Part shown: positions 1-32,607 of the stretch, piece by piece | How positions within the stretch are numbered: the first letter of the stretch is position 1 | Layout: the number at the start of each line of letters is the position of its first letter | From: an uncultured delta proteobacterium | Lineage (GTDB): Bacteria; Desulfobacterota; WTBG01; CAIYCZ01; CAIRTM01 | Reading direction: 5' to 3' | Length of the DNA: 64,000 nt | NCBI GenBank assembly: GCA_963804955.1 | Contig: CAWDSQ010000022.1 | Location: 64,001 to 128,000, forward strand | Translations under genes and position numbers: made by a program | The notes under the pieces: generated by a model | What the model was told of the DNA's origin: nothing | What the model saw: only the letters and a program-made list of their open reading frames with translations | The model's database searches: none

Positions 1-927
1 AGCTTGACGCAAAAGAAGATCTTGTCGGCTACGGTGATGTTGCAGGCTACCCTTTCCCGCAGCCGAAAACCGGTATTGAAATGGCATGGAATTTTGATTC
101 CAATACCCGGGGTGACAGCAGCTACCTGTTTCATGGCGGGACAGTTGTTGACTGCAGAACCGGACATGAGCGTGAAGCAGGGCATTTGCGGTGGGAGCTT
201 TCCTGGCTGGGCCGCTACGACGTGCCGCCGATTCCTAAAATACCGAAACAGCGAAAATACGCGCGACATTGCCCGGTCATTTTTTCAGCGCCATACAGCG
301 CCTGCCGACTTTGTTGATACCACCATGCTTGAGATCAGATATAAGGATAACCGGGAAGAGGATCTCTGGGTGTATACGGCCATGTTCAGGCGCGTACGGC
401 GCTATGCCACCAGCCAGCGGACGGACACGATCGACGGCACGGACATGATCTATGACGATCAGGAAGGATGGTACACGCATCCTACCCGCAACACCTACAC
501 TGCCAAAGGCAGGGCCGATCTGCTGGTGGGCAGGCATCAGGACCCGAAAAACGTGCAGCGCGAGCACGGCCAGGGATTCTGGAACGGCTTTCAGAGAGAG
601 CGGGTCAACCACTGGGTTGTTGAGGTAATCAATAAGGACCCGAGCTACATTTACAGCAAGCAGCTATGGTATCTGGATCCCGAGACATGGCAGATGAATT
701 TCAAGGTGGTCTACAATCGTCAGGGCGAGCTCTGGAAGATGTATGAAATAACCTATAACGAAGCTCCCTCATATGGCGGGGGCAAAACATCAATGCCCAG
801 TTCCGAGCATATTGTCGATTTTATCCGCCGCCATGGCAGCCCCGGCAACCGGGAGATAAAGGGTGTGGGCATCACTATTCCCCTGAAGCAGTTTACGACC
901 AGAGCGCTGCAGGAAAAGTCGTATTAA
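1..927 (+). CDS. DUF1329-family periplasmic/outer-membrane lipoprotein-sorting-like protein, 5'-truncated by the window edge, with an indel near 250
   Basis: ORF 81..317 (MAWNFDSNTRGD...) joins ORF 4..927. The latter has DUF1329-like motifs LWVYTAMFRRVRR, QRTDTIDGTDMIYDD, YSKQLWYLDPETW and YNRQGELWK. It lies upstream of a YCF48-like gene, the usual context. Confidence 0.75.
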   Translation, partial: SLTQKKILSATVMLQATLSRSRKPVLKWHGILIPIPGVTAATCFMAGQLLTAEPDMSVKQGICGGSFPGWAATTCRRFLKYRNSENTRDIARSFFQRHTAPADFVDTTMLEIRYKDNREEDLWVYTAMFRRVRRYATSQRTDTIDGTDMIYDDQEGWYTHPTRNTYTAKGRADLLVGRHQDPKNVQREHGQGFWNGFQRERVNHWVVEVINKDPSYIYSKQLWYLDPETWQMNFKVVYNRQGELWKMYEITYNEAPSYGGGKTSMPSSEHIVDFIRRHGSPGNREIKGVGITIPLKQFTTRALQEKSY

Positions 928-1003
928 GAGAGCGATGTTTGCAATCTAAATGACGCATAGAAAGTACCACTTACGACGTATGATGAGACCATGGTGAGAG
1001 CTA

Positions 1004-2062
1004 ATGGGCAAAAAAATAAAAGTTGAAAGTGTCTTTTTGCTGGCGCTGCTTGTGCTGGTGCCGTGCTGCAGCAAGTTTGACCGCTCGAAGATCAAGATGC
1101 CGAAGTTCAGCTTTGTTACTTCGGAAAATGTGCACAGCATCGCATACCTTGATGCGCAGCATGCCTGGATAAGCGGCAACTACGGGACAATCTGTTTCAG
1201 CTCCGACGGCGGCAAAACCTGGGAAAAGCAGGAAAGCGGCCTTAAGGATGTGCTGCTGGGCAGCATCCGGTTTGTCAATCAGCGGGAAGGATGGGCTGCG
1301 GGAGTAGGCGGGACGATAATTCATACAACTGACGGGGGCAAAACCTGGAAGCCGCAGAAAAGCGGGACAGATAAAGACCTGCTTGACCTTTTCTTCCTTG
1401 ACAGCCGCAACGGATGGGCTGTCGGAGAGTTCGGCACGGTTATTCACACGGACAATGGCGGCAGGACCTGGTCTGTGCAGCATGAGCCGGAGGATAAGAT
1501 TTATAATAATGTTTTTTTTACTGACAACAGCACGGGATGGATTGTGGGAGAGTTCGGTACGATTCTTCGCACCGAGGACGGCGGGGCGACCTGGCAGCCT
1601 CAGGAATGCAGGGATCTGGCGCCGGCTGCAAGCGAAACAGACTGGGAAAAGCCCCTGCCCGCGCTGTACGGGATTTATTTTGAGAACAAGGACCGGGGTT
1701 GGATAGTCGGGATGGACGGTGTGATACTGAAAACGGCCGATGCTGGAAACACCTGGAGCAAGGTTGTGTCAGGCACGGATAAGCCCCTGTATTCGCTTGT
1801 GGTCAGAGGATCACAAGGATGGGCGATTGGCAATAAAGGGGTTTATTTAATGAGCAGCGATGGCGGGACCACCTGGCAGGTTAAAGAAGATGCCATAAAA
1901 ACAAAGTTCTGGCTCAGGAAAGTAGCCTTCTGCGATGAGCTGCATGGCCTTGTTGTCGGAGCGCGGGGCACCATCGTCCTGTCCGATGACGGCGGCGCGC
2001 ACTGGAATATTATCTCGGGCTTTACCTATGATATGCCGGAATTCGGACTGGCGGATTTTTAG
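1004..2062 (+). CDS. YCF48-like BNR/Asp-box beta-propeller exported protein
   Basis: Signal/lipoprotein-like N-terminus; about 7 repeats of GW(A/I)VG..GTI..TxDGGxTW. Confidence 0.85.
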   Translation: MGKKIKVESVFLLALLVLVPCCSKFDRSKIKMPKFSFVTSENVHSIAYLDAQHAWISGNYGTICFSSDGGKTWEKQESGLKDVLLGSIRFVNQREGWAAGVGGTIIHTTDGGKTWKPQKSGTDKDLLDLFFLDSRNGWAVGEFGTVIHTDNGGRTWSVQHEPEDKIYNNVFFTDNSTGWIVGEFGTILRTEDGGATWQPQECRDLAPAASETDWEKPLPALYGIYFENKDRGWIVGMDGVILKTADAGNTWSKVVSGTDKPLYSLVVRGSQGWAIGNKGVYLMSSDGGTTWQVKEDAIKTKFWLRKVAFCDELHGLVVGARGTIVLSDDGGAHWNIISGFTYDMPEFGLADF

Positions 2063-2073
2063 ACGGAGAAAGC

Positions 2074-2733
2074 ATGAAAAAAGCAGCTAAAAGTACGATG
2101 CACATAGCAGTTCATGCATTGGCAGCGAGCATCTTCATTTTTCTTCTGTACATGGTGACAGGCGCGGCCGCAGAGACGGTTATAACCGATGCGTCAATTC
2201 AGGGCCAGAAACCGCTTCTTGTCTATTTTTCACGGGGCGGCAATACCAGAATCGTCGCACGCGAGCTTGCCGCAGACCTTGGCGCCGACAGCGCTGAGAT
2301 AAAGTCAAAGCTGAACCGGCAGGAATTCAGCGGGATCATAACCTGCCTGCTCGACCAGCTGCTTGACCGGGACGACGATCCTGAGGCGATACCTGTTGAC
2401 ATAGCCTCCCATAACCCGGTGATTATTGCGTCGCCCACATGGCTTAAGACGCTTTCCTCTCCTGCCCGGACATTCATACAGCAGCATGATTTCAAGGGCA
2501 AGGATGTCTATATTGTGCTGACCTATAACGGCAAGGCCAGGGATGATATTGACGCGAAGCTCAAGGAAATAATTGCCCCCCGGGGCGGAACCTTTGGCGG
2601 ATTGTTTACGCTGATAGCAAAGGGCAAGGATGAGCAGGGGCTGCGGGATGAAGCAAAAAAGCTTGCTGAAAAAATGCGGCCCCGTCTCGCGGCAAAAAAA
2701 TCCGGCATCGTTTCACATACCCCTGTTAGATAA
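2074..2733 (+). CDS. Exported flavodoxin-like protein
   Basis: Hydrophobic N-terminus ending AAA; FMN loop VYFSRGGNT; IIASPTW motif. Confidence 0.75.
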   Translation: MKKAAKSTMHIAVHALAASIFIFLLYMVTGAAAETVITDASIQGQKPLLVYFSRGGNTRIVARELAADLGADSAEIKSKLNRQEFSGIITCLLDQLLDRDDDPEAIPVDIASHNPVIIASPTWLKTLSSPARTFIQQHDFKGKDVYIVLTYNGKARDDIDAKLKEIIAPRGGTFGGLFTLIAKGKDEQGLRDEAKKLAEKMRPRLAAKKSGIVSHTPVR

Positions 2734-2797: not shown

Positions 2798-4123
2798 ATG
2801 GCCCAAAAATTTGATCTTGTTGTCGTCGGCGGTGGGACTTCCGGTCTTGAGGCTGCAAAAACCGCGGCGGAAAACGGTTTACGTGTGGCGCTTCTTGAGC
2901 GCAAGACTCATCCTGCCAAGATTCAGCGGTCATGCGCCCAGATGTTTCTGCTGAACATGGACTCCTTCTACGAAGAGCACATGTATTTTTCAAAAGAAAA
3001 GAAAAAATGGGTATTCCCGGTCAATAACTTTTCCGTCAACTACAGCGGCAACTACCGCGAGTTTTATGCCTGCCACTTCATTTCCCCCAATGCCACGGAC
3101 CGCATTGAGCTTGGAGATTACGAGCTGAATGCATCAGGCAGCGGTACTCCTGCAGTTGTATTTGATAAAGAAGCGCTTCTTGACGGACTTTTTGAAGAGG
3201 GGCAAAAGGCCGGCGTGCACTATTTTCTTGAAAGAAATGTTACCTATGTAAGCCAGGTATCCGGCGGGGTGCAGATTAAGACCGCAGAAGGCGATGTGCT
3301 TGAAGGCGCTTTTTGTATTGCAGCAGACGGCATCAATTCACGTTTGGCAAAAATAACCGGCCTGAACAAGGAGCGTCTTTTTATTAATACGAGAAAATCC
3401 ATCAGCCATTATGTCACGGGCGTCGAGTTCGAGCGCTCCGAGGCGATTTTTCTTGGCATAAGCTGGGACAAAGAAAAGCTCGGGCCCGTGCCGTTCTGCC
3501 TGCTGCCCAGTGTGTACCGTGATGATGAGTACTGGTTTTTCGTGAGCGGCGACGAGCAGTTTGAGTTTCTGACCAAACGAAGCAATTTTAAAAGGTGGTT
3601 CCCGAGGCTTGAGATCACCCATACCCGCGCAAACGTTGTCAATAACTGGAGCCCGGCGCGGGAGCCGTTTAAGGACAATGTTCTGTTTGTCGGCGACAGC
3701 TGCTGGTTTTCAGAAGCGGAAAACTCGGGCGCTCTGCTTTCAGGCCATAAGGCCGCACATGCCGTATGCGAAGCGCTGCATCGGGGCATGCCCAACAGGG
3801 ATGGCATCATGAACTACATCAGCTGGTGGCAGCAGAACTGGCTTGCAACCCACGATTACCGCGATTTCCTCTGCTATCCGCTTTTTAACCGGATGTTTAC
3901 TGAAGATGAGTATAACTACCTTCACAATATTGTTACTCAAAAGCTCCCCTGGACAATTAATCCGTTCAAGCTGTACAGCAGGCTCATGACAGGCCTGCAG
4001 CCCCACCTTGAGCGTGTAAAACAGGAGCGGCCGCAGCTTGCGCAGAAGATTGCCATGTTCCGGCCGGAGCAGGTCCTGCAACTCATAAAACCGGCAGCAC
4101 GGATGGGGTTTCCGAATGTGTAG
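2798..4123 (+). CDS. FAD-dependent oxidoreductase, geranylgeranyl reductase/FixC-like (paralog 1)
   Basis: DLVVVGGGTSG Rossmann motif, ERK..RSC, IAADGINS, VGDS motif; intact 441 aa. Confidence 0.85.
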   Translation: MAQKFDLVVVGGGTSGLEAAKTAAENGLRVALLERKTHPAKIQRSCAQMFLLNMDSFYEEHMYFSKEKKKWVFPVNNFSVNYSGNYREFYACHFISPNATDRIELGDYELNASGSGTPAVVFDKEALLDGLFEEGQKAGVHYFLERNVTYVSQVSGGVQIKTAEGDVLEGAFCIAADGINSRLAKITGLNKERLFINTRKSISHYVTGVEFERSEAIFLGISWDKEKLGPVPFCLLPSVYRDDEYWFFVSGDEQFEFLTKRSNFKRWFPRLEITHTRANVVNNWSPAREPFKDNVLFVGDSCWFSEAENSGALLSGHKAAHAVCEALHRGMPNRDGIMNYISWWQQNWLATHDYRDFLCYPLFNRMFTEDEYNYLHNIVTQKLPWTINPFKLYSRLMTGLQPHLERVKQERPQLAQKIAMFRPEQVLQLIKPAARMGFPNV

Positions 4124-4212: not shown

Positions 4213-5543
4213 ATGGCAACAAGCTATGATCTCATCGTTGTCGGTGGCGGGACTTCCGGCCTTGAAGCAGCAAAAACTGCGGCGGAAAACGGGCTGCGCG
4301 TTGCTTTGCTTGAGCGCAAAAGCCAATCCTGCAAACGTGCAGCGTGCCTGCGCCCAGATGTTTCTGATGAACATGGACTCTTTTTATAATGAGCGGATGT
4401 ATTTTTCTGAAACCACGAAGAAATGGGTGTTTCCGGTAAATAATTTTTCCGTGAACTATGCAGGAAACTACCGCAAGTTTTACGGCTGCCACTTTATCGC
4501 GCCCAATGCCCGGGACAGAATCGAGATCGGCGACTATGAAGCAAATGAATCAGAACAGGGCGTTGCAGCGGTTGTTTTCGACAAAAACGCTTTGCTTGAA
4601 GGCCTGTTTGAGGAAGGCAAGAAGGCGGGAGTCGACTATTACCTCGAGCGCAATGTGACATCCGCCGGCAGGGTCGCCGGCGGCGTGCAGGTAGAGACCG
4701 CCGAAGGAGACAGGCTTACCGGTACATTCTGCATTGCCGCAGACGGCATCAACTCGCGGCTTGCGCGGCATAAGCGGACTTAACCGGCAGCGGACATTTC
4801 TTTTTACCGCCGGGTCGGTCAGCTATTATGTCACGGGCGTGCAGTTTGACCGGTCTGAAATGATCTGCATGGGAAATGCCTATGACCATAAGGGCGGCCT
4901 GGGCCCGGTGCATTTCTGCATGCTCCCGAGCGTGTACCGTGAGGACGAATACTGGCTGTATGTCAACGGCGATGAGCGGCTTGACTTTTTTACCAACAAA
5001 AGCACCTTCAGCCCATGGTTTAAAAAAACCGAGATTACCCATAAGCGATGCGCGGTGATCAATGGATGGAGCCCTCCTCCTGAACCCTTTCTGGACAATA
5101 TAGTTTTTGTGGGTGACAGCTGCTGGTTTGCCGAAGCGGAAAATACGGGCGCGCTTCTCTCGGGACATAAAGCGGCCAATGCCGTGTGTGAAGCCCTGCA
5201 CCGGGGGGAGCCCAACAGGCAGGGGGTTTTGAGCTACATTTCATGGTGGAAGAAAAACTGGCCTGAAACACATGATTACAAGGATTTTCTCTGCTATGCC
5301 GTTTTTTTCAGGATTTTCACGGAAGATGAGCTGAATTATCTTCACAGGGTTATAACCAAGAAGCTTGTCTGGTCTATGAATCCGTTTAATCTTTACGGCC
5401 ATATTATGCGGGGGATGCAGCCCTATATTGAAAAAGTCAGGCGTGAACGTCCTGAACTTGCCCGTAAGCTGGAAAATTTCACCCCGAATCAGGCTGTTTC
5501 CATGATGAAGCCGGCAACACGTATAGGTTTTCCGGCGTATTGA
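4213..5543 (+). CDS. GGR/FixC-like FAD oxidoreductase (paralog 2), indels near 4320 and 4770
   Basis: ATG 4213 gives MATSYDLIVVGGGTSGLEAAKTAAENG. It continues in ORFs 4226..4783 and 4734..5543 and is highly similar to paralog 1. Confidence 0.85.
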
Positions 5544-5600: not shown

Positions 5601-6056
5601 ATGGAAGAAAAACTGCTTGAATATATGACCGTGCTGCGTGATTTCGGGCGTATTTACACGCAGCAAATTATCAACGGCAACCCGAAGCTGAAAACCGACC
5701 TTCGGCTGTCTCAGATAAAGACCCTCTCTGTGTTCAGGGACAGAGACCGCCTGTCAATGAAAGAACTTGCTGAAATTATGGGCGTCAAGCTTCCCAATAT
5801 GACCATGATGATAGACTGCCTGGCGAAGGAAGGTGTCGTGGAGAGGGAGCGGGACGCCGAGGACAGAAGAAAAGTGTATGTTCGCCTCACACCGAAAGGG
5901 AAGAAAATAAGAAAAGATTTTTTAATGCATCGGCACAAAATTGCACGGGCAGTTTTCAAACAGGTGAATGCAGCAGACAAGTCAGAGTTGTTGAGCTCTC
6001 TTGGCAGTGTGTGCAGGATTCTTGAAAGGGCATTTGGAGAAAACGGCATTGCGTAG
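5601..6056 (+). CDS. MarR family transcriptional regulator
   Basis: wHTH LSMKELAEIMGVKLPNMT and the wing motif DRRKVYVRLTPKG. Confidence 0.92.
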   Translation: MEEKLLEYMTVLRDFGRIYTQQIINGNPKLKTDLRLSQIKTLSVFRDRDRLSMKELAEIMGVKLPNMTMMIDCLAKEGVVERERDAEDRRKVYVRLTPKGKKIRKDFLMHRHKIARAVFKQVNAADKSELLSSLGSVCRILERAFGENGIA

Positions 6057-6140: not shown

Positions 6141-7495
6141 ATGTCAAGCAAATATGATCTCGTTATAGTCGGCGCCGGACCCGCAGGGCTCATGGCTGCA
6201 AAGGTGGCGGGAGAAAGTGGATTCACCGTTGCCCTTCTTGATCGTAAGGACAGATATTACCGAAATTCAGCGCTGCTGCGCCACGATGTTTGCCATTGAG
6301 GATGAATACTATTTCGGCGAGCGCATGTACTTTAATGAAGACAAGCGCCGTCTTGTTTTTCCGGTAACGGGATTTACCGTTCCGTATGACGGCCCGTACA
6401 AGAATTTTTATGCATGGCATCTCTATACCTCTGATGCGCAGCATGTCATAAAGCTCGGAAGCTACGAAAACAATGTTGCAAAGGGCAGCAAAGGCAGGCT
6501 TTCTGTAACTTACAGCAAGTCCCATCTTCTCAAAACCCTTCTTGACGATGCGAAGAAAGCCGGCGTGCAGGTTTTTACCGGCGCCAATGTAATCGGCTTC
6601 AAGCGCCAGAAGGATGTCAACACGGTTAGAACCGCTGAGGGTCGAGTTTTTGACAGCACCTTCACCATAGCCGCGGACGGAATCAACTCCCGGCTTATGA
6701 AGCTGCTTAATCTTAACAGAGACCGCATATTCTACGGGACCCTCCAGGGCGTGAGCTACTATATGACCGGTTTGGATTTGCCTAGTCCTGATGCGATCAA
6801 CTACCCCATGCTTTTTCATGAAAAAACTCAGTATCCGATCATGATCTGGATTGAGCCAAGCCCGTTTGCGGAAGATGAATTCTGGATATATGCCGGCGGC
6901 CCTTCGCATCCCGACATAGATTATAAAAAGGAGCTTGACAGATTTATTGTCGACAGCCCGTTTTCAAAATGGTTCCCCAAACCGGTGATCAGCAAGAAGC
7001 AGGCACATGTGGCGAATATCTGGTCGCCGGCGCCGACGGTGTTTAAAGATAATGTTCTTGTTACGGGTGACGCGGGCTGGACGGTGGAAGCCGAGTGCAC
7101 CGGCTCCATGATGTGCGGGGTGAAGGCTGCCAATGCAATCGTCGAAGCCCTGCGGGAAGGCAAGCCGAATGGTGAGGGCGTGGCAAATTATACTGCATGG
7201 TGGCGGCAGCACTTTGCAGACTCTCAGGATCATACCGAATTTTTCCAAATATTAAGCTCGGCCCTTGTCGGTGAGGAGCGGGCAAACTATCTTAATAAGC
7301 TTGTCTGTGAGACGCTTCCCTGCTCACTGAATCCGTATAACCTTTTAAAGAACGTCAATGCCCATATTATGGGGAAGGTCGGGACAATCCAGCAGGAACG
7401 GCCTGATATTCTCAGCAAAGCTGCAGGCCATGGCGATGGTGCCTGTAAAAAATCAGATGAAAAGTTTTATTCGATCGGGTTTTCCAAATTATTAG
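6141..7495 (+). CDS. GGR/FixC-like FAD oxidoreductase (paralog 3), indels near 6250 and 7420
   Basis: MSSKYDLVIVGAGPAG after an AGGAG RBS; IAADGINS; TGDAGW. The corrected C-terminus ...IRSGFPNY* matches paralogs 1 and 2. Confidence 0.85.
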
Positions 7496-7576
7496 GATTC
7501 ATTGAACAGGCATAAAATAGCGGCGCGGCGAATCATTCAAGCTCTGCAGGGCAGAATTTAACGATAGGCACGATGC

Positions 7577-8932
7577 ATGTCAAAAAATTATGATATTCTC
7601 ATTGTCGGTGCCGGGCCTTCCGGCCTGCTTGCAGCAAAGGCTGCCGGGCTTGCAGGGTTTCGGGTTGCCCTCATTGAGAGAAAAACAGATGTTTGCCGCC
7701 TTGACCGCATGTGCGGCCAGACCCTGGTATCGGCTAATGACTACTATTTTGATGACCTTGTTAACTATAATCGACAGGGCAAAAGCATAGGCTTTCTCAA
7801 AAACGGTTTTTCATTCAGCTATGACGGGCCGGTAAAAAATCTGAACGGATGGAATGTCTATTCTCCAAACGGTAACTGCATGCCGTTCGGCAACCCGGCT
7901 GAGACAAGAAAAAAGGGTGACTGGGGCTCCGTCGGCTTAGCCTATGATAAAGAGATACTGTTTAAGTGCCTGCTCAGCGAAGTCAGGGATGCGGGTGTCG
8001 AAGTCATTACCGGCATAGATATTACCGCTGTAGAAACCATGCAGGCAGGCGTCAGGGTGAGCGGCAACGGGCAAACCTTTGAAGGATCATATCTCATTGC
8101 CGCTGACGGCACCAATTCACGTATTGCTAAGCTTCTGGGCTTTAATGAAGGAAGAAGGTTCTACAGCTATCTTCTCGCCATGGGATGGCGCATGCGGGGC
8201 TTAAAGCTTCCGGAGCAGGATATTCTTATCTCCGGCATAACCTATAAAACCGCTGCCCCGGGCTCCATGTTCATATTTCCCCGACCCTATGAAAATGAGC
8301 ATATGGTTGTATTTTTGGCCCTTGAGCCGACGGTTGATCTTGCTGATGTGTCTCGGGCGTTTATGCAGGAAAGCGCTTTCTTTGCGCCATGGTTTAAGGG
8401 AGCGGAGCAGATCAAGCAACTGGCCTCAGCCCAGTATATGTACGAGCCGGTTCTGGAGCCATATAGAAACCGTGTGCTTCTTGCCGGTGATACAGGCGCC
8501 TGCCAGGAGCTTGAAAACACCGGGGCCATGATCAGCGGCTGGAAGGCGGGAAATGCCGTAGCCGCCGCCCTGAAAGAGGATAAAATGGGAATTGGGTCCC
8601 GGGCTATTGCCGAGTATGTGCAGTGGTGGAAGGCAACCTATATTGAAAAATGCTCTCATGATGCGTATCTCATGAACTTTGCGCTGCCGTATGTTCTGGA
8701 TACCGAAGATGATCTGAATTACCTGTTCAGCCTGATGGGTGAGCCGCTTGCTCCCTGCTGGAATCCATACGCGGCAATTGCCCATATCGGGCAGCTCATG
8801 CAGACGCTGGCGCCGCGCATACAGAAGGAACGGCCCGACATTATGATGAAGCTTGCGAAAATGTCCCGTCCGATGACGGAAGTGCTTGGTGCGGCAACAA
8901 AGGCATGTCAGCCACTCGTGGAATTAAAATAA
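7577..8932 (+). CDS. GGR/FixC-like FAD oxidoreductase (paralog 4)
   Basis: YDILIVGAGPSG, IAADGTNS, LAGDTG; intact 451 aa. Confidence 0.87.
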   Translation: MSKNYDILIVGAGPSGLLAAKAAGLAGFRVALIERKTDVCRLDRMCGQTLVSANDYYFDDLVNYNRQGKSIGFLKNGFSFSYDGPVKNLNGWNVYSPNGNCMPFGNPAETRKKGDWGSVGLAYDKEILFKCLLSEVRDAGVEVITGIDITAVETMQAGVRVSGNGQTFEGSYLIAADGTNSRIAKLLGFNEGRRFYSYLLAMGWRMRGLKLPEQDILISGITYKTAAPGSMFIFPRPYENEHMVVFLALEPTVDLADVSRAFMQESAFFAPWFKGAEQIKQLASAQYMYEPVLEPYRNRVLLAGDTGACQELENTGAMISGWKAGNAVAAALKEDKMGIGSRAIAEYVQWWKATYIEKCSHDAYLMNFALPYVLDTEDDLNYLFSLMGEPLAPCWNPYAAIAHIGQLMQTLAPRIQKERPDIMMKLAKMSRPMTEVLGAATKACQPLVELK

Positions 8933-23303: not shown

Positions 23304-23365
23304 GGCTTCCAGCCTACAAGGCAGGAAATCTGCGATGCTAAAATCCGGAAATGTGACAGGACAGC

Positions 23366-24310: not shown

Positions 24311-24815
24311 TTGTCATGCGATTGCAAAAACCGGATACACCGATGCAGCGCCGAGCAGCGGCTGGAGAAAATACTGCCCATGATGGTGAGCGACAGGATA
24401 AACCTCTATCTTGATCTGAAAAAAGTGCTGGGTGAGGAGAAGGGAACAGAAGTTTTTAAGAAACTTTATGACGAGGGCATGAAGCGCATCCGGAAAAATT
24501 TTCCCGGCGGCAAGCTTCCCATCGGCCAGCTTATGAAGCGGGAACTCATAAGCTTTCCCATGATCGGTTTTGAACTGCACATCGATCAAGGAGATCGAGA
24601 ACGGCGAGGAGGTGTATTACGAGCATCTCACGAAATGTCCGTTTCTGGACATGGCGAAAAAAATGGGTATTGCCGAGCTCCCCTGCGACTTTATCTGCGG
24701 CTATGATGTTGAAGTGGCCCTTCGCGACAAGCGCGGGCGGTGGGAGATCAAGTCAAGGATGGGTGATGGCGCTTCCGAGTGCCAGTTCCGCATCAGGGAC
24801 TGGAAGGACGAGTAG
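24311..24815 (+). CDS. ATC-hydrolase/V4R-like protein, indel near 24590
   Basis: TKCPF...CDFICGYD...RMGDGASECQFRI pattern. Confidence 0.6.
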
Positions 24816-24869: not shown

Positions 24870-25049
24870 TTGATAAAGATAGATAAAGAGAAATGCTCCG
24901 GGTGCTGCGGGTGCGTTGATCACTGCCCGGTGGCAGCAATTAATGTAATCGATGATGTGGTGGTAGTGGATAATGATCTGTGCATGGAATGCCTGATCTG
25001 CACGAAGGTCTGTCCGTTGCGGGCGCCGCAGGAGACGGTGGAGGCATAA
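24870..25049 (+). CDS. 2[4Fe-4S] ferredoxin, 59 aa (not in the ORF track)
   Basis: TTG start after GGAGGA; MIKIDKEKCSGCCGCVDHCP...CMECLICTKVCP. Confidence 0.85.
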   Translation: MIKIDKEKCSGCCGCVDHCPVAAINVIDDVVVVDNDLCMECLICTKVCPLRAPQETVEA

Positions 25050-25086: not shown

Positions 25087-26418
25087 ATGGCAGAATTATA
25101 TGATGTGATAATTGTAGGAGCCGGTCCAGCGGGAGCCATGGCTGCAAAGATCGCCGGGGAGAACGGTCTGAAGGCCGCCATAATCGAGCGCAAGACCGAT
25201 ATCAGCGCGATCCGCAGGATCTGTACCATGATCGTGAATGTAGATGAGGAGAACGTGGGAGATATTCTCACGTACAGCCACAAGACAAAACGGTTTATAT
25301 TTCCGCACAATGGCTTTTCCTTTAAATATGACGGGCCCACGCGCAACGTGTACGGGTTTCATATAATAACCCCCGGGGGCATGCAGGTTGAGATGGGCAA
25401 TATTGCCCGTGGGAAGGCTGAGGGAAATGTTGTGGGTCTGATGATCCACAAGGGGCATATGTGCCAGGGGCTGGTGAATGAAGCACAGCAGTACGGCGTT
25501 GAAGTGTTTACCAACAGCAATATCAACAGCGTGAGGAAAGAGGCCGGGTATGTGGCGTTGCTGGACAACCGGGGCAATGAGTACCGGGGTAAATTCGTAA
25601 TAGCGGCGGACGGGGTAAATTCACGGATAGCGCGGCTGCTGGGGCTGGACAAGGAGCGGGTGTTCATCGGGACGTACCTGGATATGGCGCGGACCTATGA
25701 GGGCTATGAGATTCCCGATGAAGAAAGACTGATGTTCGGGCTGGGGTGGCCAACGGGCATATCGCTGGCGCCGGAAATGACGCCCGGGTCATCTGCATGT
25801 GGCGGCGACGAGCTATAATTACGAAAACGATCTTGACGCGCAGATAGAGCAGTTTGTAACCACGGGCACGTATGCCAAGTGGTTTAAGAAGGCGCGGGAG
25901 GTTGGGCACCGGACAAGCTGCGTGTCAAATATTGCAACCCCCATTATTATGCCGTTTAAGGATAATGTGCTGGTGGTCGGGGGACTCGTCGTGGATGCAG
26001 GAGACGGGGATCAACGGAGCGCTTATGCCGGGATGGAGCGCAGCCAATGCGGTAACCGAGGCGATCTTGAAGAATGAAATCAATAAAAACGGAATAGCGA
26101 GCTATCTGGCCTGGTATGACAAGTTCTGGTACCAGCCCTTCGGGAAACGGATGGCAAGCAGCGGTGGCGCGGACATGAAGGATTATCTGTCAGGGGAGGA
26201 TATTGACTATCTGGCGGGTCTGGTTGAGGAGTCGATGCCGGCCACCATGAACTTTTTTACAATTATGAAGCAAATCGGGACGACGTTTGCAGCACTTGCT
26301 GCCGCGGATACAGGATGAGCGGCCCGACATCATGCAGAAGCTGCTGGGGTACCGGTCGCATCCGCGGGCGCTGGCCCTGGCTAAACGCCGCAACGAAGGC
26401 TGCGCTATCGTGACTTAA
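25087..26418 (+). CDS. GGR/FixC-like FAD oxidoreductase (paralog 7), 3 indels
   Basis: YDVIIVGAGPAG, IAADGVNS, GDSSW; corrected end ...ERPDIMQKL...CAIVT*. Confidence 0.85.
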
Positions 26419-26518
26419 GCAGGCGGCGCTACGGGAGGTTTAGGCAGATTAATGTAAAGGTTTGATGTGCAAACCAGCAATAAAATTTTATCATAAACGT
26501 CATATGATGGAGCAAGCT

Positions 26519-26968
26519 ATGGATGCAAAAAAGGTGGATGCAATAATTGAAAGGCACAAGGCGGAGAGAGGCGCGCTCATTTCCATGCTGCATGCCATTC
26601 AGGATGAGGAAGGGTATGTGCCAGCGGACGCAATGAGCTACCTGAGCGATAAACTGGCTACGCCGCTTGGGGAAATTTCCCGTGTGGCAACGTATTTTGA
26701 CAAAGCGTTCAAACTGGCGCCGAAAGAGGAGCATACGGTCCGGGTCTGCCGGGGCACAACCTGTCATGTGAAGAAGTCGGATGAATTGTACAAAGAGATT
26801 TCTGACGAGCTGAGCAAGGACGGGAAAAGCTTTCGGTTTTCTTTGGGGCAGGCTCGATGTCTGGGATGCTGTACGTCATCGGGTCCGGTGGTGGAAATCG
26901 ATGGCGAGGTATACGAACAGGATTCCGCAAAAAGCACCATCATCAAACTGAAAGGCGAGATGAAATGA
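26519..26968 (+). CDS. NuoE/HydC-like [2Fe-2S] subunit (module 2)
   Basis: LHAIQDEEGY, VCRGTTCH, RCLGCC. Confidence 0.85.
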   Translation: MDAKKVDAIIERHKAERGALISMLHAIQDEEGYVPADAMSYLSDKLATPLGEISRVATYFDKAFKLAPKEEHTVRVCRGTTCHVKKSDELYKEISDELSKDGKSFRFSLGQARCLGCCTSSGPVVEIDGEVYEQDSAKSTIIKLKGEMK

Positions 26969-28693
26969 AAATAGAGACTATAAAAGATTTAAACAAACTC
27001 AAGGGTGCGGGAGAGAAGATGCTGCGGCCTGAAACCATCCGGGTACAGGTGGGGGCCTCGTCATCTGCTCTTTCAAAGGAAGCCGCTCAAGTCGGCGAGC
27101 AATTAAAAAAAGAGCTTGGGAAGCGCGGCATTGAGGCTGTGGTTGTTTCCGTGGGATGCCTGGGCCTGAGCACGCAGGAACCCATAGTGGAGGTGATTGC
27201 GCCGGGCAAACCCAAGGTCACCTACGGCCGGATCACCGCCGGAATGGCGCCGCTGCTGGCAGGGGCCATCGCAGAAGGCAAAGTGCTGAAAAAGCACGCC
27301 CTGTATCGAACCGATGAGGAGGAACTGCTCTGCAGCACAACCGGGTTCAGCTATGGCAAGGCATCGGCTGAGTTCAAAGGGCTTCCCACGGCAGGCGAGT
27401 TCAAGTTTTTGAAGCCGCAGGTGCGCATTGCGATGAGAAATTCAGGCCAGATCAATCCGGAGAGCATCGAAGAGTATGCAGCCAGGGGAGGGTATGCAGC
27501 GCTGCATAAGGCTTTGACGAAGATGGATCCTGATGCAGGTTATCGATACGGTTATCAAGTCCGAGCTCAGAGGCAAGGGCGGCGGCGGATTTCCGGCGGG
27601 GCAGAAGTGGAAGAGCTGCCGCGATGCCAGGGGCAAGGATAAATACGTTATCTGCAACTGCAGCGAAGGCGATCCCGGCATTGGCATGCACAAGAGCCTT
27701 ATTGAGTCCGACCCCTACAGCATTATTGAGGGATTGACCATTGGCGGGTATGCTATCGGCGCCCGGGAAGGCTATATCTACCTGCATCACGGGTACGCCG
27801 CGGGCAGGCAAAAGCTGAAAAAGGCAATTGACCGGGCAACGGAGTGCGGGCTGCTGGGCGAGAATATTTTTGGAAGCGGGTTTAGCTTCACCGTCACTTT
27901 AAAAGAGGGCGCCGGTGCGTATGTGTGCGGCGAGTCGACGGCCCTGATGGCATGCATTGAAGGCCGGGCCGGAGAGCCCCGTCCGAAATATATACACACG
28001 GCGGAAAAAGGGGTGTGGGAAAAGCCCACGAATCTCAACAATGTGGAGACGTGGTGTAATGTCGCGCCGATTATTTTTCGGGGCCCTGAGTGGTTTACAA
28101 AAATCGGCACGAAAGCAAGCAGAGGGACAAAGGTTATTTCCCTCACCGGCAATATCAACACACCCTGCCTTGCAGAAGTCCCCATGGGCACAACGCTGAA
28201 AACCGTTATCACGAAGCTGGGCGGCGGCATGCCCAAGGGCAGTACGCTCAAGGCGATCGGGATCGGCGGACCGCCGGCCGGCATGCTGCCGGCGTCGCTT
28301 GCCGATACGCCGATTGAATTTGACGCGCTCTGGAAGGCCGGGTCCATGCTGGGCTCCGGCGGCATGATTGTTATGGATGACAAGAACTGCATGGTCGACA
28401 TGACGCGCTTTTTTCTGAAGTTCCTCGAAGAGGAATCCTGCGGCAGGTGCTTTCCCTGCCGGGAGGGGATCAAACGGATGCGCGAAATTGTTGAAGGCAT
28501 CAGCATCGGGATCGGAAAACCGGAACATTTTGCGCTGCTTGAGGAGCTTATGGAGTGCCTGTCGCAGACGGCACTGTGCGATCTGGGCAAATCCGCACCC
28601 AATGCGGTGCGCTGCGCGCTGCGCCATTTCAAGGAGGAATTTGATACCCATATTGAGCGGGAAGTATGCCCGGCTAAACGATGTGCTATATAA
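26965..28693 (+). CDS. Divergent NuoF/HydB-like subunit (module 2), indel near 27535
   Basis: ELRGKGGGGFPAG, CNCSEGDPG, CGESTALM, ESCGRCFPCREG; no C-terminal ferredoxin domain. Confidence 0.85.
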
Positions 28694-28721
28694 AACCCGA
28701 GAACTTTTAAGGTGAGATGCG

Positions 28722-29475
28722 ATGCTTAAACTAACTATAGATGGAAAAAATATTCAGACGGAAAAAGGGACCACCATTCTTACAGGCGGCAAAAGCTAAC
28801 GGGATTGCTATCCCGACCCTGTGCCATCATGAAGGGCTGAGCCCCCTGGCCAACTGCAGGCTGTGCGTGGTTGAGGTAACCCAGAACAACAGGACGCGGG
28901 TGGTCACCTCCTGCAATTACCAGGTGCAGGAAGGGATGCAGGTGGCGACCCAAACCGGGCGGATTGTCTCCATGCGAAAGACAATCATAAAGCTGATCAT
29001 GGGCAGATCGCCGAATGTGAAGATTGTCAGGGACCTGGCCGCTGCCATGGGGATTGAAAAGACACCGTTCACGCTGGAAAACGATAAGTGCATCCTGTGC
29101 GGTTTATGCGAGCATGTGTGCAGCGAGTATATCGGCGCCCATGCAATAACGTTCACGGGTCACGGGACCGGAAAATTTGTTTCAGCGCCCTTCAGCGTAT
29201 CCTCCAGGGACTGCATCGCCTGCGGAGCCTGTGTTGAGGTGTGCCCCGCCAGGTGCATTGCCATGAAGGATGTTGAAGATGCCAAGACCTATTATTGGGC
29301 TGAGTCTGAGACGGTAGGGCCGGCACGGGTTGTGTACAACTGGAATGCGCGGGTTGCGTGGAAGAAGTGCTCGAAGTGCGGAAACGCTTTTCCTCCGCCG
29401 TCGGTACTGCCGTACCTGGACAAGGGCGAAGCCCTGCCGAAGAAATTTTTTGATATCTGCCAGAAGTGTAAGTAA
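28722..29475 (+). CDS. NuoG-N/HydA-N-like Fe-S subunit (module 2), indel near 28770
   Basis: MLKLTIDGK..., IPTLC..NCRLCVVE..TSC, CILCGLCEHVC, CIACGACVEVCP, terminal CxxC pairs. Confidence 0.85.
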
Positions 29476-29516: not shown

Positions 29517-29696
29517 TTGATAAAGATAGATAAAGAGAAATGCTCCGGGTGCTGCGGGTGCGTTGATCACTGCCCGGTGGCAGCAATTAATGTAATCGAT
29601 GATGTGGTGGTTGTGGATAATGATCTGTGCATGGAATGCCTTATCTGCACGAAGGTCTGTCCGTTGCGGGCGCCGCAGGAGACGGTGGAGGCATAA
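29517..29696 (+). CDS. 2[4Fe-4S] ferredoxin (duplicate)
   Basis: Same protein as 24870..25049, with only synonymous changes. Confidence 0.85.
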   Translation: MIKIDKEKCSGCCGCVDHCPVAAINVIDDVVVVDNDLCMECLICTKVCPLRAPQETVEA

Positions 29697-29733: not shown

Positions 29734-31063
29734 ATGGCAGAATTATATGATGTGATAATTGTAGGAGCCGGTCCAGCGGGAGCCATGGCTGCAAAGATCG
29801 CCGGGGAGAACGGTCTGAAGGCCGCCATAATCGAGCGCAAGACCGATATCAGCGCGATCCGCAGGATCTGTACCATGATCGTGAATGTAGATGAGGAGAA
29901 CGTGGGAGATATCCTCACGTACAGCCACAAGACAAAACGGTTTATATTTCCGCACAATGGCTTTTCCTTTAAATATGACGGGCCCACGCGCAACGTGTAC
30001 GGGTTTCATATAATAACCCCCGGGGGCCTGCAGGTTGAGATGGGCAATATTGCCCGTGGGAAGGCTGAGGGAAATGTTGTGGGTCTGATGATCCACAAGG
30101 GGCATATGTGCCAGGGGCTGGTGAATGAAGCACAGCAGTACGGCGTTGAAGTGTTTACCAACAGCAATATCAACAGCGTGAGGAAAGAGGCCGGGTATGT
30201 GGCGCTGCTGGACAACCGGGGCAATGAGTACCGGGGTAAATTCGTTATAGCGGCGGACGGGGTAAATTCACGGATTGCGCGGCTGCTGGGGCTGGACAAG
30301 GAGCGGGTGTTCATCGGGACGTACCTGGATATGGCGCGGACCTATGAAGGCTATGAGATTCCCGATGAAGAAAGACTGATGTTTGGCCTGGGGTGGCCAA
30401 CGGGCATATCGCTGGCGCCGGAAATGACCCCGGGTCATCTGCATGTGGCGGCGACGAGCTATAATTACGAAAACGATCTTGACGCGCAGATAGAGAAATT
30501 TGTAACCACGGGCACGTATGCCAAGTGGTTTAAGAAGGCGCGGGAGGTTGGGCACCGGACAAGCTGCGTGTCAAATATTGCAACCCCCATTATTATGCCG
30601 TTTAAGGATAATGTGCTGGTGGCGGGGGACTCGTCGTGGATGCAGGAGACGGGGATCAACGGAGCGCTTATGCCGGGATGGAGCGCAGCCAATGCGGTAA
30701 CCGAGGCGATTTTGAAGAATGAAATCAATAAAAACGGAATAGCGAGCTATCTGGCCTGGTATGACAAGTTCTGGTACCAGCCCTTCGGGAAACGGATGGC
30801 AAGCAGCGGTGGCGCGGACATGAAGGATTATCTGTCAGGGGAGGATATTGACTATCTGGCGGGTCTTGTTGAGGAGCCGATGCCGGCCACCATGAACTTT
30901 TTTACAATTATGAAGCAGATCGGGACGACGTTTGCAGCACTTGCTGCCGCGGATACAGGATGAGCGGCCCGACATCATGCAGAAGCTGCTGGGGTACCGG
31001 TCGCATCCGCGGGCGCTGGCCCTGGCAAAACGCCGCAACGAAGGCTGCGCTATCGTGGCTTAA
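29734..31063 (+). CDS. GGR/FixC-like FAD oxidoreductase (paralog 8, duplicate of 7), indel near 30940
   Basis: ORF 29734..30963 plus a shifted C-terminus ending CAIVA*. Confidence 0.85.
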
Positions 31064-31134
31064 GCTCGCTAAAATTCAATAGTAACAGAGCAGTGCAGGC
31101 ACAACACAGTATGTTACGCAGGGAGAGTTTTGAA

Positions 31135-32104
31135 ATGGCAAATCAGCTGTATGCAGACATAGCAAAACATACGCAGGGAAAGCATATTATGCTGGTAGGT
31201 TCTTCCGGTAATATCGGCGGGAAAGCCCTTTCAATACTTTTGCAATACGGGAAAGCCGCATCAATCACCGCCTTTGATAAAAGAGCGCCGAAAATAAAGG
31301 AACTTCCCGAATCGGTTAAAGTATGCAGCGGAGATCAGGGTGATATTACCAGTGCTGATGCGGTTGAAGCGGCGATGCAGGGCAATACGGTGGTCGTCTG
31401 CGCCATAGGCGTCCCCCGTTATTTAGCGCCGGGTGAGAAAAAGCTGACCCCTGATGAAATAGAGCGGCAGGGCATGCTGCATATTGTTGATGCGGCAAAA
31501 AAGACAGGGGTGCATCAGATTGTCTATATAAGCGCCCTGGGGGTTGCCCGGGGCGATAAGATTCCTGCATTTCATCTGGCGCACACAGCTAAAAGGCAGG
31601 CTGAGGATATGCTGAAAAAGTCTGGAATCGCCTATACGATTCTTCGGCCGTCAGGATATTATTTTGACTTTCGCGAGCTGCTGGCAGCGGCGGTTGCCGG
31701 AAGATATCATGTGGTTGATGAAGGTCTGGCGCGCGTTCAGCCGATTCATCATGAGGATATGGCCGATATTCTTATCGCATCAATCAACAACAAAAAAGTG
31801 GAGAAACAAGGTCATTGCCGTGGGCGGCCCTGAAATATTCTCCTATGCTGAGCTGGGTAAGGTGTTCGGTAGCGTGCTGCAGACCGAGGTTAATGTAATT
31901 CATTTAGCGCCTGAAAAGTACAAAAAAGAATATTTTAACAGTGATCTTATCCTGTTCAGAGCCACTTCGGATAGTATTCTGACCAAAGAAGAACTGAGCG
32001 CCCTGCTTGGCATATATCCGGGCCTTGAGCTTAAAAGACTGGAGGATTATCTCAATAATCCGAATGATCCTATGCTGAAGTCGTTTTTAAAAAAAACCAC
32101 CTGA
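31135..32104 (+). CDS. Atypical SDR/NmrA-like NAD(P)H-binding protein, indel near 31800
   Basis: LVGSSGNIG, YISALG, AKRQAE, YTILRPSGY, VGGPE; paralog of 23366. Confidence 0.82.
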
Positions 32105-32157
32105 ATAAGATGATGCTCAGTCACGCGCGAGTGACCCTGAGAAAGGAGTCTTCATTC

Positions 32158-32607
32158 ATGACAGTTTCAACTCTTACCGTTATGATTCTAGCGGCCTTTG
32201 TATGGTACTCCGGAGGGATTGCGCTGGTGCTCAAGGGCCTCTCGCTGGCCAGAAGCGCCTACGCGATCGATCCTGCCTCCCTCTGGTCGTACGGGGCTCC
32301 GCTGCTCGGCATAGCAATCGGGCTTGTCAAGGCCAGGTTTATTTTCAATCATGCCTGCAAAAAAAACATACTCCGGATAGGAAAGCTTGAAGCTCCTAAG
32401 CTCTGGCAGTGCTTCAGGCCCGGCATGCTCATATTTCTTGCAATCATTATTCCGACAGGGGCCTGGATGTCGCGTGCCGCTGCAGGCAAGTTTTTCTATC
32501 TTTGCCTTGTTTGCGGCCTGGATTTTTCAATAGCCACGGCCCTGCTTGTTTCAAGCATGATGTTCTGGAGGCTGAAGGCTTTTTCCGGAGTGACCGTAGC
32601 TGAATAA
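32158..32607 (+). CDS. Small membrane protein
   Basis: 4 hydrophobic segments; AAGGAG RBS. Confidence 0.7.
   Translation: MTVSTLTVMILAAFVWYSGGIALVLKGLSLARSAYAIDPASLWSYGAPLLGIAIGLVKARFIFNHACKKNILRIGKLEAPKLWQCFRPGMLIFLAIIIPTGAWMSRAAAGKFFYLCLVCGLDFSIATALLVSSMMFWRLKAFSGVTVAE

Follow-up and report, generated by a model that had tools for sequence, protein, structure and literature searches.

Eight GGR-like flavoproteins with ferredoxins and NuoEFG-like modules in an uncultured Desulfobacterota genome: a candidate panel of C=C reductases

What does a bacterium do with eight related flavoproteins encoded side by side with ferredoxins, NADH-type iron-sulfur (Fe-S) modules and envelope genes? The question is raised by a 64,000-nucleotide stretch of DNA from an uncultured delta proteobacterium of the Desulfobacterota (assembly GCA_963804955.1, contig CAWDSQ010000022.1, positions 64,001 to 128,000; hereafter the window), of which positions 1-32607 form a single block with every tabulated gene on the + strand. 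An earlier note on this DNA had listed in this island eight flavoproteins resembling geranylgeranyl reductase (GGR-like), three ferredoxins, two NuoEFG-like modules, a GlcD-GlcF-GlcD-like trimer, two SDRs, two MarRs and DUF1329/YCF48 genes, and had proposed an undescribed pathway that imports hydrophobic unsaturated compounds and reduces or oxidises their C=C bonds. Analysis of open reading frames (ORFs) and Pfam domains recovered every gene of that list on the + strand and added frame breaks, a duplicate pair (copies 7 and 8), an orphan PorB/PorD-like pair, a start upstream of the window at an MMPL pump, an ATC_hydrolase-like gene, a flavodoxin-like protein and a pair of membrane and secreted proteins at 10890-12391. 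The overall interpretation given in that note is partly supported by our data: with moderate confidence, we read the island as a panel of C=C reductases that draws on NADH and ferredoxin and acts on a hydrophobic substrate.

The 5' part of the island runs DUF1329, YCF48/BNR, flavodoxin-like, GGR-like 1-2, MarR, GGR-like 3-5, MarR (ORFs, Pfam and NCBIfam), and its middle continues with a membrane protein, a secreted-like protein, PorD-like, PorB-like, NuoE/F/G module 1 and GlcD-GlcF-GlcD (Pfam and NCBIfam). The 3' part carries a ferredoxin with GGR-like 6, an SDR, the ATC_hydrolase-like gene, a ferredoxin with GGR-like 7 and NuoE/F/HoxU-like module 2, and the end consists of a ferredoxin with GGR-like 8, an SDR and a membrane protein of 165 amino acids (aa). 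We label the source genome G000, its contigs C plus a number and the families of its relatives f1-f6; L001 is a Thermodesulfobacteriota metagenome-assembled genome (MAG), and L034, L041, L045, L044/L050 and L060 are metagenome contigs. The flavoprotein genes and the small ferredoxin genes preceding three of them are as follows.

2798-4123, + strand: GGR-like 1, 441 aa, unbroken; 67% identical to L001_5427
4213-5543, + strand: GGR-like 2, tandem duplicate of copy 1; breaks near 4310-4320 and 4768; three collinear tblastn pieces against L001_5427, 68-76% identical
6141-7515, + strand: GGR-like 3; break near 6247; 64% identical to L001_8621 in two frames and its sister in the tree
7577-8932, + strand: GGR-like 4, 451 aa, unbroken; source of the structure model; 238 homologues in a database search, the best 92% identical
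9003-10326, + strand: GGR-like 5; break near 10166; 67% and 63% identical to L001_12324 in two frames
21675-21866, + strand: small 2x[4Fe-4S] ferredoxin before copy 6; Fer4_7 6e-13
21959-23341, + strand: GGR-like 6, in many ORF pieces with at least four breaks; 52% identical to L001_20948
24870-25049, + strand: small 2x[4Fe-4S] ferredoxin before copy 7; amino acid sequence identical to the ferredoxin at 29517
25087-26418, + strand: GGR-like 7, by sequence comparison a near-identical duplicate of copy 8; three breaks
29517-29696, + strand: small 2x[4Fe-4S] ferredoxin before copy 8; Fer4 4.2e-12
29734-31063, + strand: GGR-like 8, C-terminal tail out of frame after ~30923-30941; the ORF of 409 aa is cut by the break (relatives have 440-443 aa; the closest, P0121, has 442 aa and is 96% identical); 488 relatives in a database search

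The paralogs were found to lie outside the characterised families. Against the GGR family model TIGR02032, whose cut-off is 158.8 bits, copies 1, 4 and 8 scored 68.6, 77.2 and 80 bits, copy 6 gave weak pieces (C22:85968 and C22:86752), and none of the 36 matches in the source genome passed (best 89.1); a passing match was present in 6 of 14 control genomes. The closest solved relative of copy 8, searched as a single sequence, was Ta0516 of Thermoplasma (3oz2; 1.1e-15), and a profile of the family matched this protein at 2.4e-28 over chain residues 68-394 of 397, compared with 1.4e-15 for FixC. The structure model of copy 4 (pLDDT 92.9, pTM 0.92) also had 3oz2 as its best fold match (TM 0.67/0.75, 17% identity), followed by flavin halogenases, Sulfolobus GGR (TM ~0.65) and FixC (0.61). 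The 3oz2 match and the profile alignment, which extends to residue 394, show that the GGR-type FAD fold is present over its whole length, C-terminal helical domain included. Across 36 sequences there is no variation at G11, G13, G16, R44 and C46 or in the AADG.NS and GD motifs, and the GxGxxG, AADG and GD motifs are held in common with the archaeal GGRs (Ta0516 3oz2; Sulfolobus 3atq/4opc).

Archaeal GGRs carry a conserved cysteine near the flavin as well as an aromatic lipid-binding cavity motif, YxWxFP. In our family R44-x-C46, whose cysteine may correspond to that of GGR, is invariant in the 36 sequences, and cysteine is the majority residue in the profile alignment. The island proteins differ from archaeal GGRs in their low identity (17%), their sub-cut-off scores, the loss of the aromatic cavity motif and their bacterial host, and further in the 8-32 matches per genome among relatives and in the placement of the genes among NADH/Fe-S modules and envelope genes. 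We read the flavoproteins as a sister family of archaeal GGR, not as GGR proper. Database names of the relatives of copies 4 and 8 are generic only (FAD-dependent monooxygenase, flavin-dependent dehydrogenase, DGGGPL reductase), and an atlas search brought up nothing but FAD oxidoreductase clusters with generic names. When 1.84 billion representatives of 50% identity clusters were searched with the profile, 146 matched with E no higher than 1e-30, a number that rises to 2371 at 1e-10. A literature search, which covered the main text of PMC9304861 and the text and supplement 2 of PMC13101534, returned no paper on the flavoprotein family or on a NuoEFG-ferredoxin-GGR unit.

Two other identities were considered and rejected. 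FixC of FixABCX (7koe) resembles the island proteins in that a PHBH-fold flavoprotein is accompanied by a small ferredoxin-like partner, FixX, with a fold TM of 0.61; FixC/ETF-quinone oxidoreductase was set aside at 35.8 bits against a cut-off of 610 for NF007542, with no EtfAB genes in 1-32607 and a profile match weaker than that to GGR. An oxygen-dependent monooxygenase or halogenase, suggested by database names and fold neighbours, was tentatively dropped in view of the anaerobic-looking host and the low-potential Fe-S partners.

The kinship with GGR allows another answer to our question, namely that the paralogs act as archaeal GGR, MenJ and ChlP do and saturate isoprenoid lipids, quinone side chains or pigments of the organism itself. 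The closest solved structures are indeed lipid-saturating GGRs, and the text of PMC6394551 places hopanoid exporters among the HAE3 pumps. Nevertheless, such biosynthetic tailoring appears improbable: scores lie far under the GGR family cut-off, relatives hold 8-32 matches per genome, the array includes MarR regulators, NADH modules and catabolic-type envelope genes, and Pfam scans of the cluster detected no prenyltransferase and no lipid or quinone synthesis gene.

The small ferredoxins, whose eight cysteines are invariant in their alignment, are the candidate electron donors of the favoured panel of C=C reductases. Methanosarcina acetivorans has a ferredoxin-dependent GGR with a small ferredoxin gene next to the reductase, and in the island, too, a small ferredoxin gene adjoins the reductase. 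On contig C20 of the source genome, a ferredoxin is fused to a domain resembling ferredoxin-dependent bilin reductase (FDBR-like) and follows MarR, SDR and ATC_hydrolase-like genes; this fusion at the same operon position (SDR, ATC_hydrolase-like, ferredoxin::reductase) supports the small ferredoxin as a dedicated donor. Ferredoxin plus copy 7 and ferredoxin plus copy 8 are 98.7% identical (1564/1584 positions, 2 gaps) with 13 synonymous and 3 non-synonymous differences, a pattern that indicates selection on both duplicates up to the very recent past.

In a tree of 20 paralogs, copies 1/2, 3, 4, 5 and 8 each paired with their own L001 ortholog at SH-aLRT (a likelihood-ratio branch support) of 96-100, except that the copy 2 pair had 82 inside a 100-supported copy 1/2 group, indicating that the paralogs are old and individually maintained. 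GGR-like matches were found in 33 of 41 genomes (40 relatives and the source genome; relatives are not independent samples): f1 16/16, f2 4/4, f4 10/10, f5 1/1, f3 1/8 and f6 0/1, with 8-32 matches per genome in f1, f2, f4 and f5. An ortholog at least 75% identical to the GlcF-like gene of the island was found in 30 of 31 relatives of f1, f2, f4 and f5 (not in G020) and in 0 of 9 relatives of f3 and f6, GlcF-like matches numbering 2-11 per relative. Orthologs of copy 4 and GlcF lie within 8 kb on one contig in only four relatives (G007, G009, G012 and G014) and on different contigs in G030; the other assemblies are too fragmented to tell.

Gene order is also conserved. L001 runs MMPL, 542-aa gene, DUF1329, YCF48, GGR-like, MarR, three GGR-like, NIR_SIR/4Fe-4S, GGR-like, MarR and, after this second MarR, membrane protein, 207-aa gene, ferredoxin, GlcD, GlcF, GlcD, GGR-like, at 49-87% identity to the island. 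The NIR_SIR/4Fe-4S protein within its GGR-like array (L001:11401-12270, 289 aa) is encoded by a gene that is missing from the window. A scan of metagenomes gave 74 loci, of which the 33 with a near full-length family match were analysed, many of these being shorter than 3 kb with neighbours not visible. L034 carries NuoE-NuoF-NuoG-ferredoxin-GGR-like in the same order as the window; L041 carries ferredoxin, PorD-like ferredoxin, PorB-like, NuoE, NuoF, NuoG, ferredoxin and two GGR-like genes; L045 repeats the L001 order, both having DUF1329-YCF48-GGR-like array-MarR-membrane pair-GlcD-GlcF; L044/L050 have six tandem GGR-like genes and the GlcD-GlcF-GlcD trimer; and L060 has ferredoxin-GGR-like-SDR. 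Among the 33 loci, a ferredoxin adjoins a GGR-like gene in 8, GGR-like genes stand in tandem in 9, GlcD/GlcF occur in 7, DUF1329/YCF48 in 3, MarR in 2 and NuoEFG in 2 (L034 and L041). Within the source genome, the series PorD-like ferredoxin-PorB-like-NuoE-NuoF-NuoG-ferredoxin-GGR-like is found unbroken at C7:379705-385736 and is present at C25, and GlcD/GlcF triplets lie near GGR-like genes at three further places. The earlier note had held that its idea would fall if the paralogs belonged to a characterised family with a known pathway or if the genes were not co-conserved; since they belong to no characterised family and this synteny check found their order kept in all the named loci, with paralogous modules in the genome itself, neither is the case.

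How could electrons reach these flavoproteins? The two NADH/Fe-S modules, module 1 (13585-16749) with an adjoining PorD/PorB-like pair and module 2 (26462-29475), comprise the following genes.

12431-12709, + strand: PorD-like 2x[4Fe-4S] ferredoxin; Fer4_21 5.1e-11
12667-13584, + strand: PorB-like protein; NCBIfam PorB 76.8 bits against a cut-off of 405
13585-14083, + strand: NuoE/HydC-like [2Fe-2S] subunit, module 1; 2Fe-2S_thioredx on two pieces, break near 13787
14080-15993, + strand: NuoF/HydB-like subunit, module 1, at least five breaks; Complex1_51K, SLBB, NADH_4Fe-4S and Fer4 on successive pieces
16000-16749, + strand: NuoG N-terminal/HoxU-like Fe-S subunit, module 1, 249 aa; Fer2_4 2.8e-18 plus 4Fe-4S domains
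26462-26968, + strand: NuoE-like subunit, module 2; 2Fe-2S_thioredx 1.8e-32
26965-28693, + strand: NuoF-like subunit, module 2, break near 27533; Complex1_51K, SLBB, NADH_4Fe-4S; TIGR01959 396.6 bits against a cut-off of 558.65
28741-29475, + strand: HoxU/NuoG N-terminal-like subunit, module 2; Fer2_4 4.6e-14 plus 4Fe-4S; HoxU model 106.8 bits against a cut-off of 333

The Bfu family, as described in the main text of Schut et al. 2022 (PMC9304861), includes HydABC, NfnABC, Wor-Bfu and the predicted Por-Bfu and Bam-Bfu, its modules run in both directions, and its BfuB subunit is defined by NuoF FMN, SLBB, NuoF 4Fe-4S and 4Fe-4S ferredoxin domains. All four defining domains were found by Pfam on successive pieces of module 1, whose NuoF/HydB-like subunit is extended at its N terminus and ends in a 2x[4Fe-4S] domain; an unbroken NuoF-like paralog on C7 (620 aa) has Complex1_51K, NADH_4Fe-4S and two Fer4. 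BfuC (NuoE-like) and minimal BfuA (2Fe-2S plus 4Fe-4S) domains occur in both modules, and the NuoG-like subunits, at 244-249 aa, have no catalytic domain. The description of the modules as catalytic-less NuoEFG/HydCBA holds, with the Bfu-type domain set in module 1 only. As in the Bfu family, the NuoE-, NuoF- and short NuoG-like subunits lack catalytic domains of their own, the C-terminal 2x[4Fe-4S] domain that defines BfuB is present in module 1 and in the C7 paralog, and POR-type proteins adjoin the core as in the predicted Por-Bfu. The island departs from that family in that its candidate third module would be a GGR-like flavoprotein reached via a free ferredoxin, in that it has only PorB- and PorD-like proteins, the former with no recognisable thiamine-diphosphate domain, and in that module 2 is without the defining domain. 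The words 'geranylgeranyl' and 'FAD-dependent' have 0 occurrences each in the main text of PMC9304861. L041 and the modules at C7 and C25 likewise have the PorD-like gene in front of the PorB-like gene; no Pfam domain was recognised in the PorB-like protein at E up to 1, and a Pfam scan detected no PorA or PorC nearby. We read the PorB-like protein as a putative Fe-S scaffold, not an oxoacid enzyme.

The remaining large parts of the island are the trimer and the envelope genes, which begin upstream of the window (L012:15536-19647) with an MMPL pump and a 541-aa gene before DUF1329.

L012:15536-17878, upstream of the window: MMPL pump, 780 aa; MMPL 5.6e-33
L012:18022-19647, upstream of the window: 541-aa gene in the place of AmeA
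1-927, + strand: DUF1329/LolA-like periplasmic protein (AmeB-like), running off the window start, break near 251-256; DUF1329 3.9e-22 and 1.5e-06 on two pieces; 68% identical to the L001 ortholog
1004-2062, + strand: YCF48/BNR-repeat protein (AmeC-like); PSII_BNR 2.6e-48; 62% identical to the L001 ortholog
16894-18382, + strand: GlcD-like FAD protein 1, break near 17117-17130; FAD_binding_4 on two pieces; 62% identical to L001
18407-19736, + strand: GlcF/Hdr-like CCG-domain Fe-S protein, break near 19380; CCG 2.7e-19 and 1.5e-15; 87% and 78% identical to L001
19820-21477, + strand: GlcD-like FAD protein 2, breaks near 20091 and 20360; FAD_binding_4 on two pieces; 77-84% identical to L001

Both sets have published counterparts. 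The text of Toth et al. 2026 (PMC13101534) describes in the benzene degrader ORM2a a 'Magic' cluster with an FAD-binding/Fe-S/FAD-binding trimer, whose proteins 24-26 (WAC08368-70) were the three most detected proteins on benzene, and a 'Nanopod' cluster with DUF1329, YCF48-related and MMPL genes. By Pfam, 16894-21477 has the make-up of the 'Magic' trimer, two FAD_binding_4 proteins and a CCG-domain Fe-S protein, and the first 400 residues available of ORM2a proteins 25 and 26 look by eye collinear with GlcF and GlcD1. The two systems share the arrangement of an FAD-binding, Hdr-like Fe-S and FAD-binding trimer, its likeness in sequence being judged by eye, and the DUF1329, YCF48-related and MMPL genes, and both hosts are uncultured Desulfobacterota; the island differs in holding both kinds of module together, plus eight GGR-like genes. 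In the text and supplement 2 of PMC13101534 'geranylgeranyl' has 0 occurrences. Of the earlier claim that the locus is undescribed, the part on the flavoprotein array stands, and the part on the other genes does not: the DUF1329/YCF48/MMPL genes have a published counterpart in ORM2a, and the trimer appears to be already described, by architecture only.

For the envelope genes, the only tested system of this type is AmeABCD, a tetrapartite HAE3-RND system of Castellaniella defragrans, which the text of PMC6394551 describes as a monoterpene exporter giving tolerance. The island resembles it in the HAE3/MMPL pump, the DUF1329 protein and the PSII-assembly-factor-like protein, and AmeABCD likewise is located in an island for hydrophobic (monoterpene) metabolism; gene order differs, and the 541-aa gene in the place of AmeA showed no match to DUF1302, an outer-membrane protein family, with Pfam at E up to 1.

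These counterparts bring up the opposite direction of electron flow, in which the flavoproteins and the GlcD-FeS-GlcD complex dehydrogenate or activate a saturated or aromatic hydrophobic substrate and NAD+ or protons take up the electrons by way of ferredoxin and the NuoEFG-like modules. The trimer architecture equals that of 'Magic' 24-26, proposed for benzene, with two of these proteins collinear by eye with island proteins; DUF1329, YCF48 and MMPL match 'Nanopod' (PMC13101534); the genome has ~20 AOR/BamB-type genes, and Bfu modules are bidirectional (PMC9304861). We consider this oxidative catabolism unlikely. Pfam scans of 1-32607 detected no CoA ligase, CoA transferase or MaoC hydratase gene, and none for beta-oxidation, unlike 'Magic'; by established thermodynamics, a step from C-C to C=C needs an input of energy before its electrons can reduce NAD+ or ferredoxin; among solved structures, the nearest relatives of the flavoproteins are reductases; and the relation to the ORM2a proteins is judged by eye.

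For the reductive panel that we favour, we propose the following path. An AmeABCD-like envelope system (MMPL, 541-aa protein, DUF1329, YCF48) would move substrate or product across the envelope. In the cytoplasm, NADH would be oxidised at the FMN of a NuoF-like subunit. The Fe-S clusters that relay the electrons onwards would be those of the NuoE-like, NuoG-like and orphan PorD/PorB-like proteins, and the chain would lead to a dedicated small 2x[4Fe-4S] ferredoxin and then to the FAD of a GGR-like flavoprotein, which would saturate the C=C bond. Each of the eight old, diverged paralogs may act on a different bond or congener of one class of polyunsaturated hydrophobic compounds, the GlcD-FeS-GlcD complex and the two SDRs could carry out further redox steps, and the two MarRs would switch the island on with substrate. 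Module 1, having the Bfu domain set, may couple exergonic C=C reduction to ferredoxin reduction.

Could the island instead be a relic? Only copies 1 and 4 of the GGR-like genes are unbroken. Homology-guided mapping with unbroken homologues from L001, the metagenome loci and the paralogous modules of the source genome yielded 21 supported frame junctions, and together with Pfam pieces (NuoF-like 1, copy 6, SDRs) and short-read indels we estimate ~30 breaks in total. Contigs of three independent DNA runs, mostly 92-99% identical to the window, have single-base indels at or near break sites, among those listed being 15007, 15108, 15339/15342, 15461, 21597, 21641, 24081, 24817, 24834, 29512 and 30941, with at least 24 more than these; contigs of runs X1 and X3 lack one base at 30941, and long contig pieces over other break sites show 1-3 gaps. 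This comparison is informative only for the stretches that the contigs cover. The possibility that the breaks are real and that the island is being lost in the source organism draws on a break density of ~1 per kb, which is higher than elsewhere and not fully explained, on the broken state of 6/8 GGR-like genes here against 2/~12 elsewhere in the genome, and on break sites that are not long homopolymers. On the other hand, independent short-read contigs at 97-99% identity show single-base indels where the breaks lie or close by, every mapped junction is a frame change with no large deletions seen, the copy 7/8 duplicates are biased to synonymous differences, the L001 orthologs are all unbroken, and genes are split across the genome, ~8/~20 AOR-family genes among them. 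A frame break also divides the gene of a HAMP/CHASE3 histidine kinase (window 54364-55969) into two ORFs that overlap, so that breaks occur outside the cluster as well. Because of the short-read indels, the unbroken L001 orthologs, the synonymous bias and the split genes elsewhere, the breaks are most likely consensus errors of the assembly, and a decaying relic seems quite unlikely.

What might the substrate be? PF05996, the FDBR model, had 8 matches over cut-off in the source genome and, among 14 control genomes, one match only, in the cyanobacterium. FDBR-like matches number 6-22 per relative and follow the family pattern of the GGR-like genes (f1 15/16, f2 4/4, f4 10/10, f5 1/1, f3 0/8, f6 0/1), and a comparison of coordinates by eye puts FDBR-like and GGR-like genes 0.3-2 kb apart on a shared strand at 16 sites spread over 14 relatives, and again at C32 of the source genome. 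The NuoEFG-ferredoxin-GGR-like unit of C7 is followed by PNPOx-like and FDBR-like genes and flanked by a Flavodoxin_5-like gene and a ferrochelatase-like gene, the latter at 26.6 bits just below its cut-off of 27. Tetrapyrrole-type pigments are a possible substrate in our view, short of a probable one, and we give the same tentative weight to isoprenoid lipids, pigments or quinones, to which the GGR kinship and the HAE3 pump point equally. The ORM2a analogy and the many AOR genes point to aromatics, which we find doubtful. As an observation apart, FDBR-like genes are expanded in this non-phototroph, with C22:17173-17844, C32:76205-76849, C20:77084-77554, C7:388079-388555 and L108:6598-7587 among the sites; pre-PcyA proteins of heterotrophs have reportedly been the subject of published papers (PMC10151467, PMC13446030).

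Several points weigh against a reductive, NADH-driven panel. The catalytic role proposed for every family member, its reductive direction included, is a prediction from sequence; contigs from an RNA library (X20) cover bits of 14005-22023 at 92-98% identity, which is no proof of transcription. The 'YIWVFP' of Ta0516 aligns with 'sislap' in the subfamily of copy 8, with proline alone retained, and as the aromatic cavity motif is not kept there, a polyprenyl substrate is not implied. The NuoF-like subunit of module 2 has no Fer4, the Bfu-defining domain, and by eye also misses the cysteines of the N-terminal domain, so that module 2 falls outside the Bfu definition. L001 and L045 have a 62-aa ferredoxin alone where the island has module 1, and the missing NuoEFG at the corresponding place indicates that the NADH module is accessory. 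AmeABCD-type pumps export (according to the text of PMC6394551). Domain scans of the island cluster detected no FDBR-like, ferrochelatase-like or CoA-activating gene; the tetrapyrrole and aromatic leads come from paralogous islands or from analogy, and with no FDBR-like gene in the cluster, tetrapyrrole is a family-level lead and not a finding for this locus. The density of the frame breaks, higher here than elsewhere, counts on this side as well.

If the reductive panel nevertheless holds, it would define a large enzyme family (~146 clusters at 50% identity and E up to 1e-30) with dozens of copies per genome in some lineages, and a new kind of third module for NuoEFG/Bfu-type cores, namely a free ferredoxin plus a GGR-like flavoprotein. 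L001, L034, L041 and L045, which carry unbroken orthologs, would then provide targets for work on pigment and lipid saturation in anoxic sediments, on the microbes as well as the enzymes behind it. If the kinship judged by eye holds, the 'Magic'-type trimer would belong to a multi-copy family (2-11 GlcF-like per relative) and not be special to benzene degraders. A much bolder idea, to which we give little credence, is that uncultured Desulfobacterota of one class-level group obtain part of their living from hydrogenating double bonds in sinking algal material, pigments as well as lipids (chlorins, bilins, phytol, carotenoids, sterols, quinones). Their toolkit, 8-32 GGR-like and 6-22 FDBR-like matches per genome, would consist of ferredoxin-dependent reductases powered by Bfu-type NADH modules, which would also conserve energy through electron bifurcation. 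Biomarkers are hydrogenated during early diagenesis in anoxic sediments, and if this idea were true it would supply the missing biology behind that process.

The other genes of the island are the following.

2074-2733, + strand: flavodoxin-like protein with an N-terminal hydrophobic segment; weak Flavodoxin_5/_4 matches near cut-off (8.9e-06 and 1.4e-05)
5601-6056, + strand: MarR regulator 1; Pfam MarR 1.6e-12
10361-10828, + strand: MarR regulator 2, start uncertain; Pfam MarR 2.7e-12
10890-11765, + strand: conserved membrane protein, 291 aa, no family; 75% identical to the L001 ortholog
11837-12391, + strand: conserved protein, 184 aa, signal-peptide-like start, no family; 51% identical to the L001 ortholog
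23394-24271, + strand: atypical SDR 1 (NAD_binding_10/NmrA type), two frame breaks; NAD_binding_10 7.1e-19
24311-24815, + strand: ATC_hydrolase-like small protein, one frame break; PF14196 1.3e-06
31093-32104, + strand: atypical SDR 2 (NAD_binding_10/NmrA type), one frame break; NAD_binding_10 9.9e-26
32110-32607, + strand: small membrane protein (ORF), 165 aa, no family; closes the strand block

Pfam at E up to 1 gave no match for the 541-aa, 291-aa, 184-aa, 165-aa or PorB-like proteins. The genes for the 291-aa and 184-aa proteins are found together in L045 and L047, and relatives of the flavodoxin-like protein adjoin other GGR-like genes at C7, C16 and L037. Against solved structures, the ATC_hydrolase-like protein returned nothing under E 0.1, and the SDR returned generic atypical SDRs only, its match to 'Flavin reductase (NADPH)' at E 0.005 being too weak for a link to bilins. 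An intact ATC_hydrolase-like paralog at L108:6051-6530 scores 1.9e-12 and sits in a unit of SDR, ATC_hydrolase-like and ferredoxin::FDBR. No Rfam family was detected in 1-33000. Between GlcD-like 2 and the ferredoxin, a ~130-nucleotide intergenic element at 21536-21670, itself with no Rfam match, is a dispersed repeat with ~20 copies in the genome at 73-91% identity; its depth is 83-593 versus ~5 nearby in three DNA runs, and many contigs end at 21539-21571.

The host looks anaerobic. DsrA (TIGR02064) was not found in the source MAG, which is 87% complete, and strains close to the source are present in the freshwater and sediment metagenomes compared with the window. The genome has 33 matches to the C-terminal domain of AOR/BamB-type tungsten oxidoreductases, corresponding to ~20 genes, ~8 of them in pieces, and one such gene (C7:419921-421078) adjoins a GGR-like gene. 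Convergent with the island end, an 863-aa hybrid sensor histidine kinase with four PAS domains and a receiver is encoded at window 32622-35213 on the - strand and is a possible second regulator. Further along, the window encodes two more Flavodoxin_5-type proteins, at 39050-39784 on the - strand (2.1e-06) and at 44098-45249 on the + strand (1.4e-09), of the same kind as those found by GGR-like or FDBR-like genes at C32 and C7.

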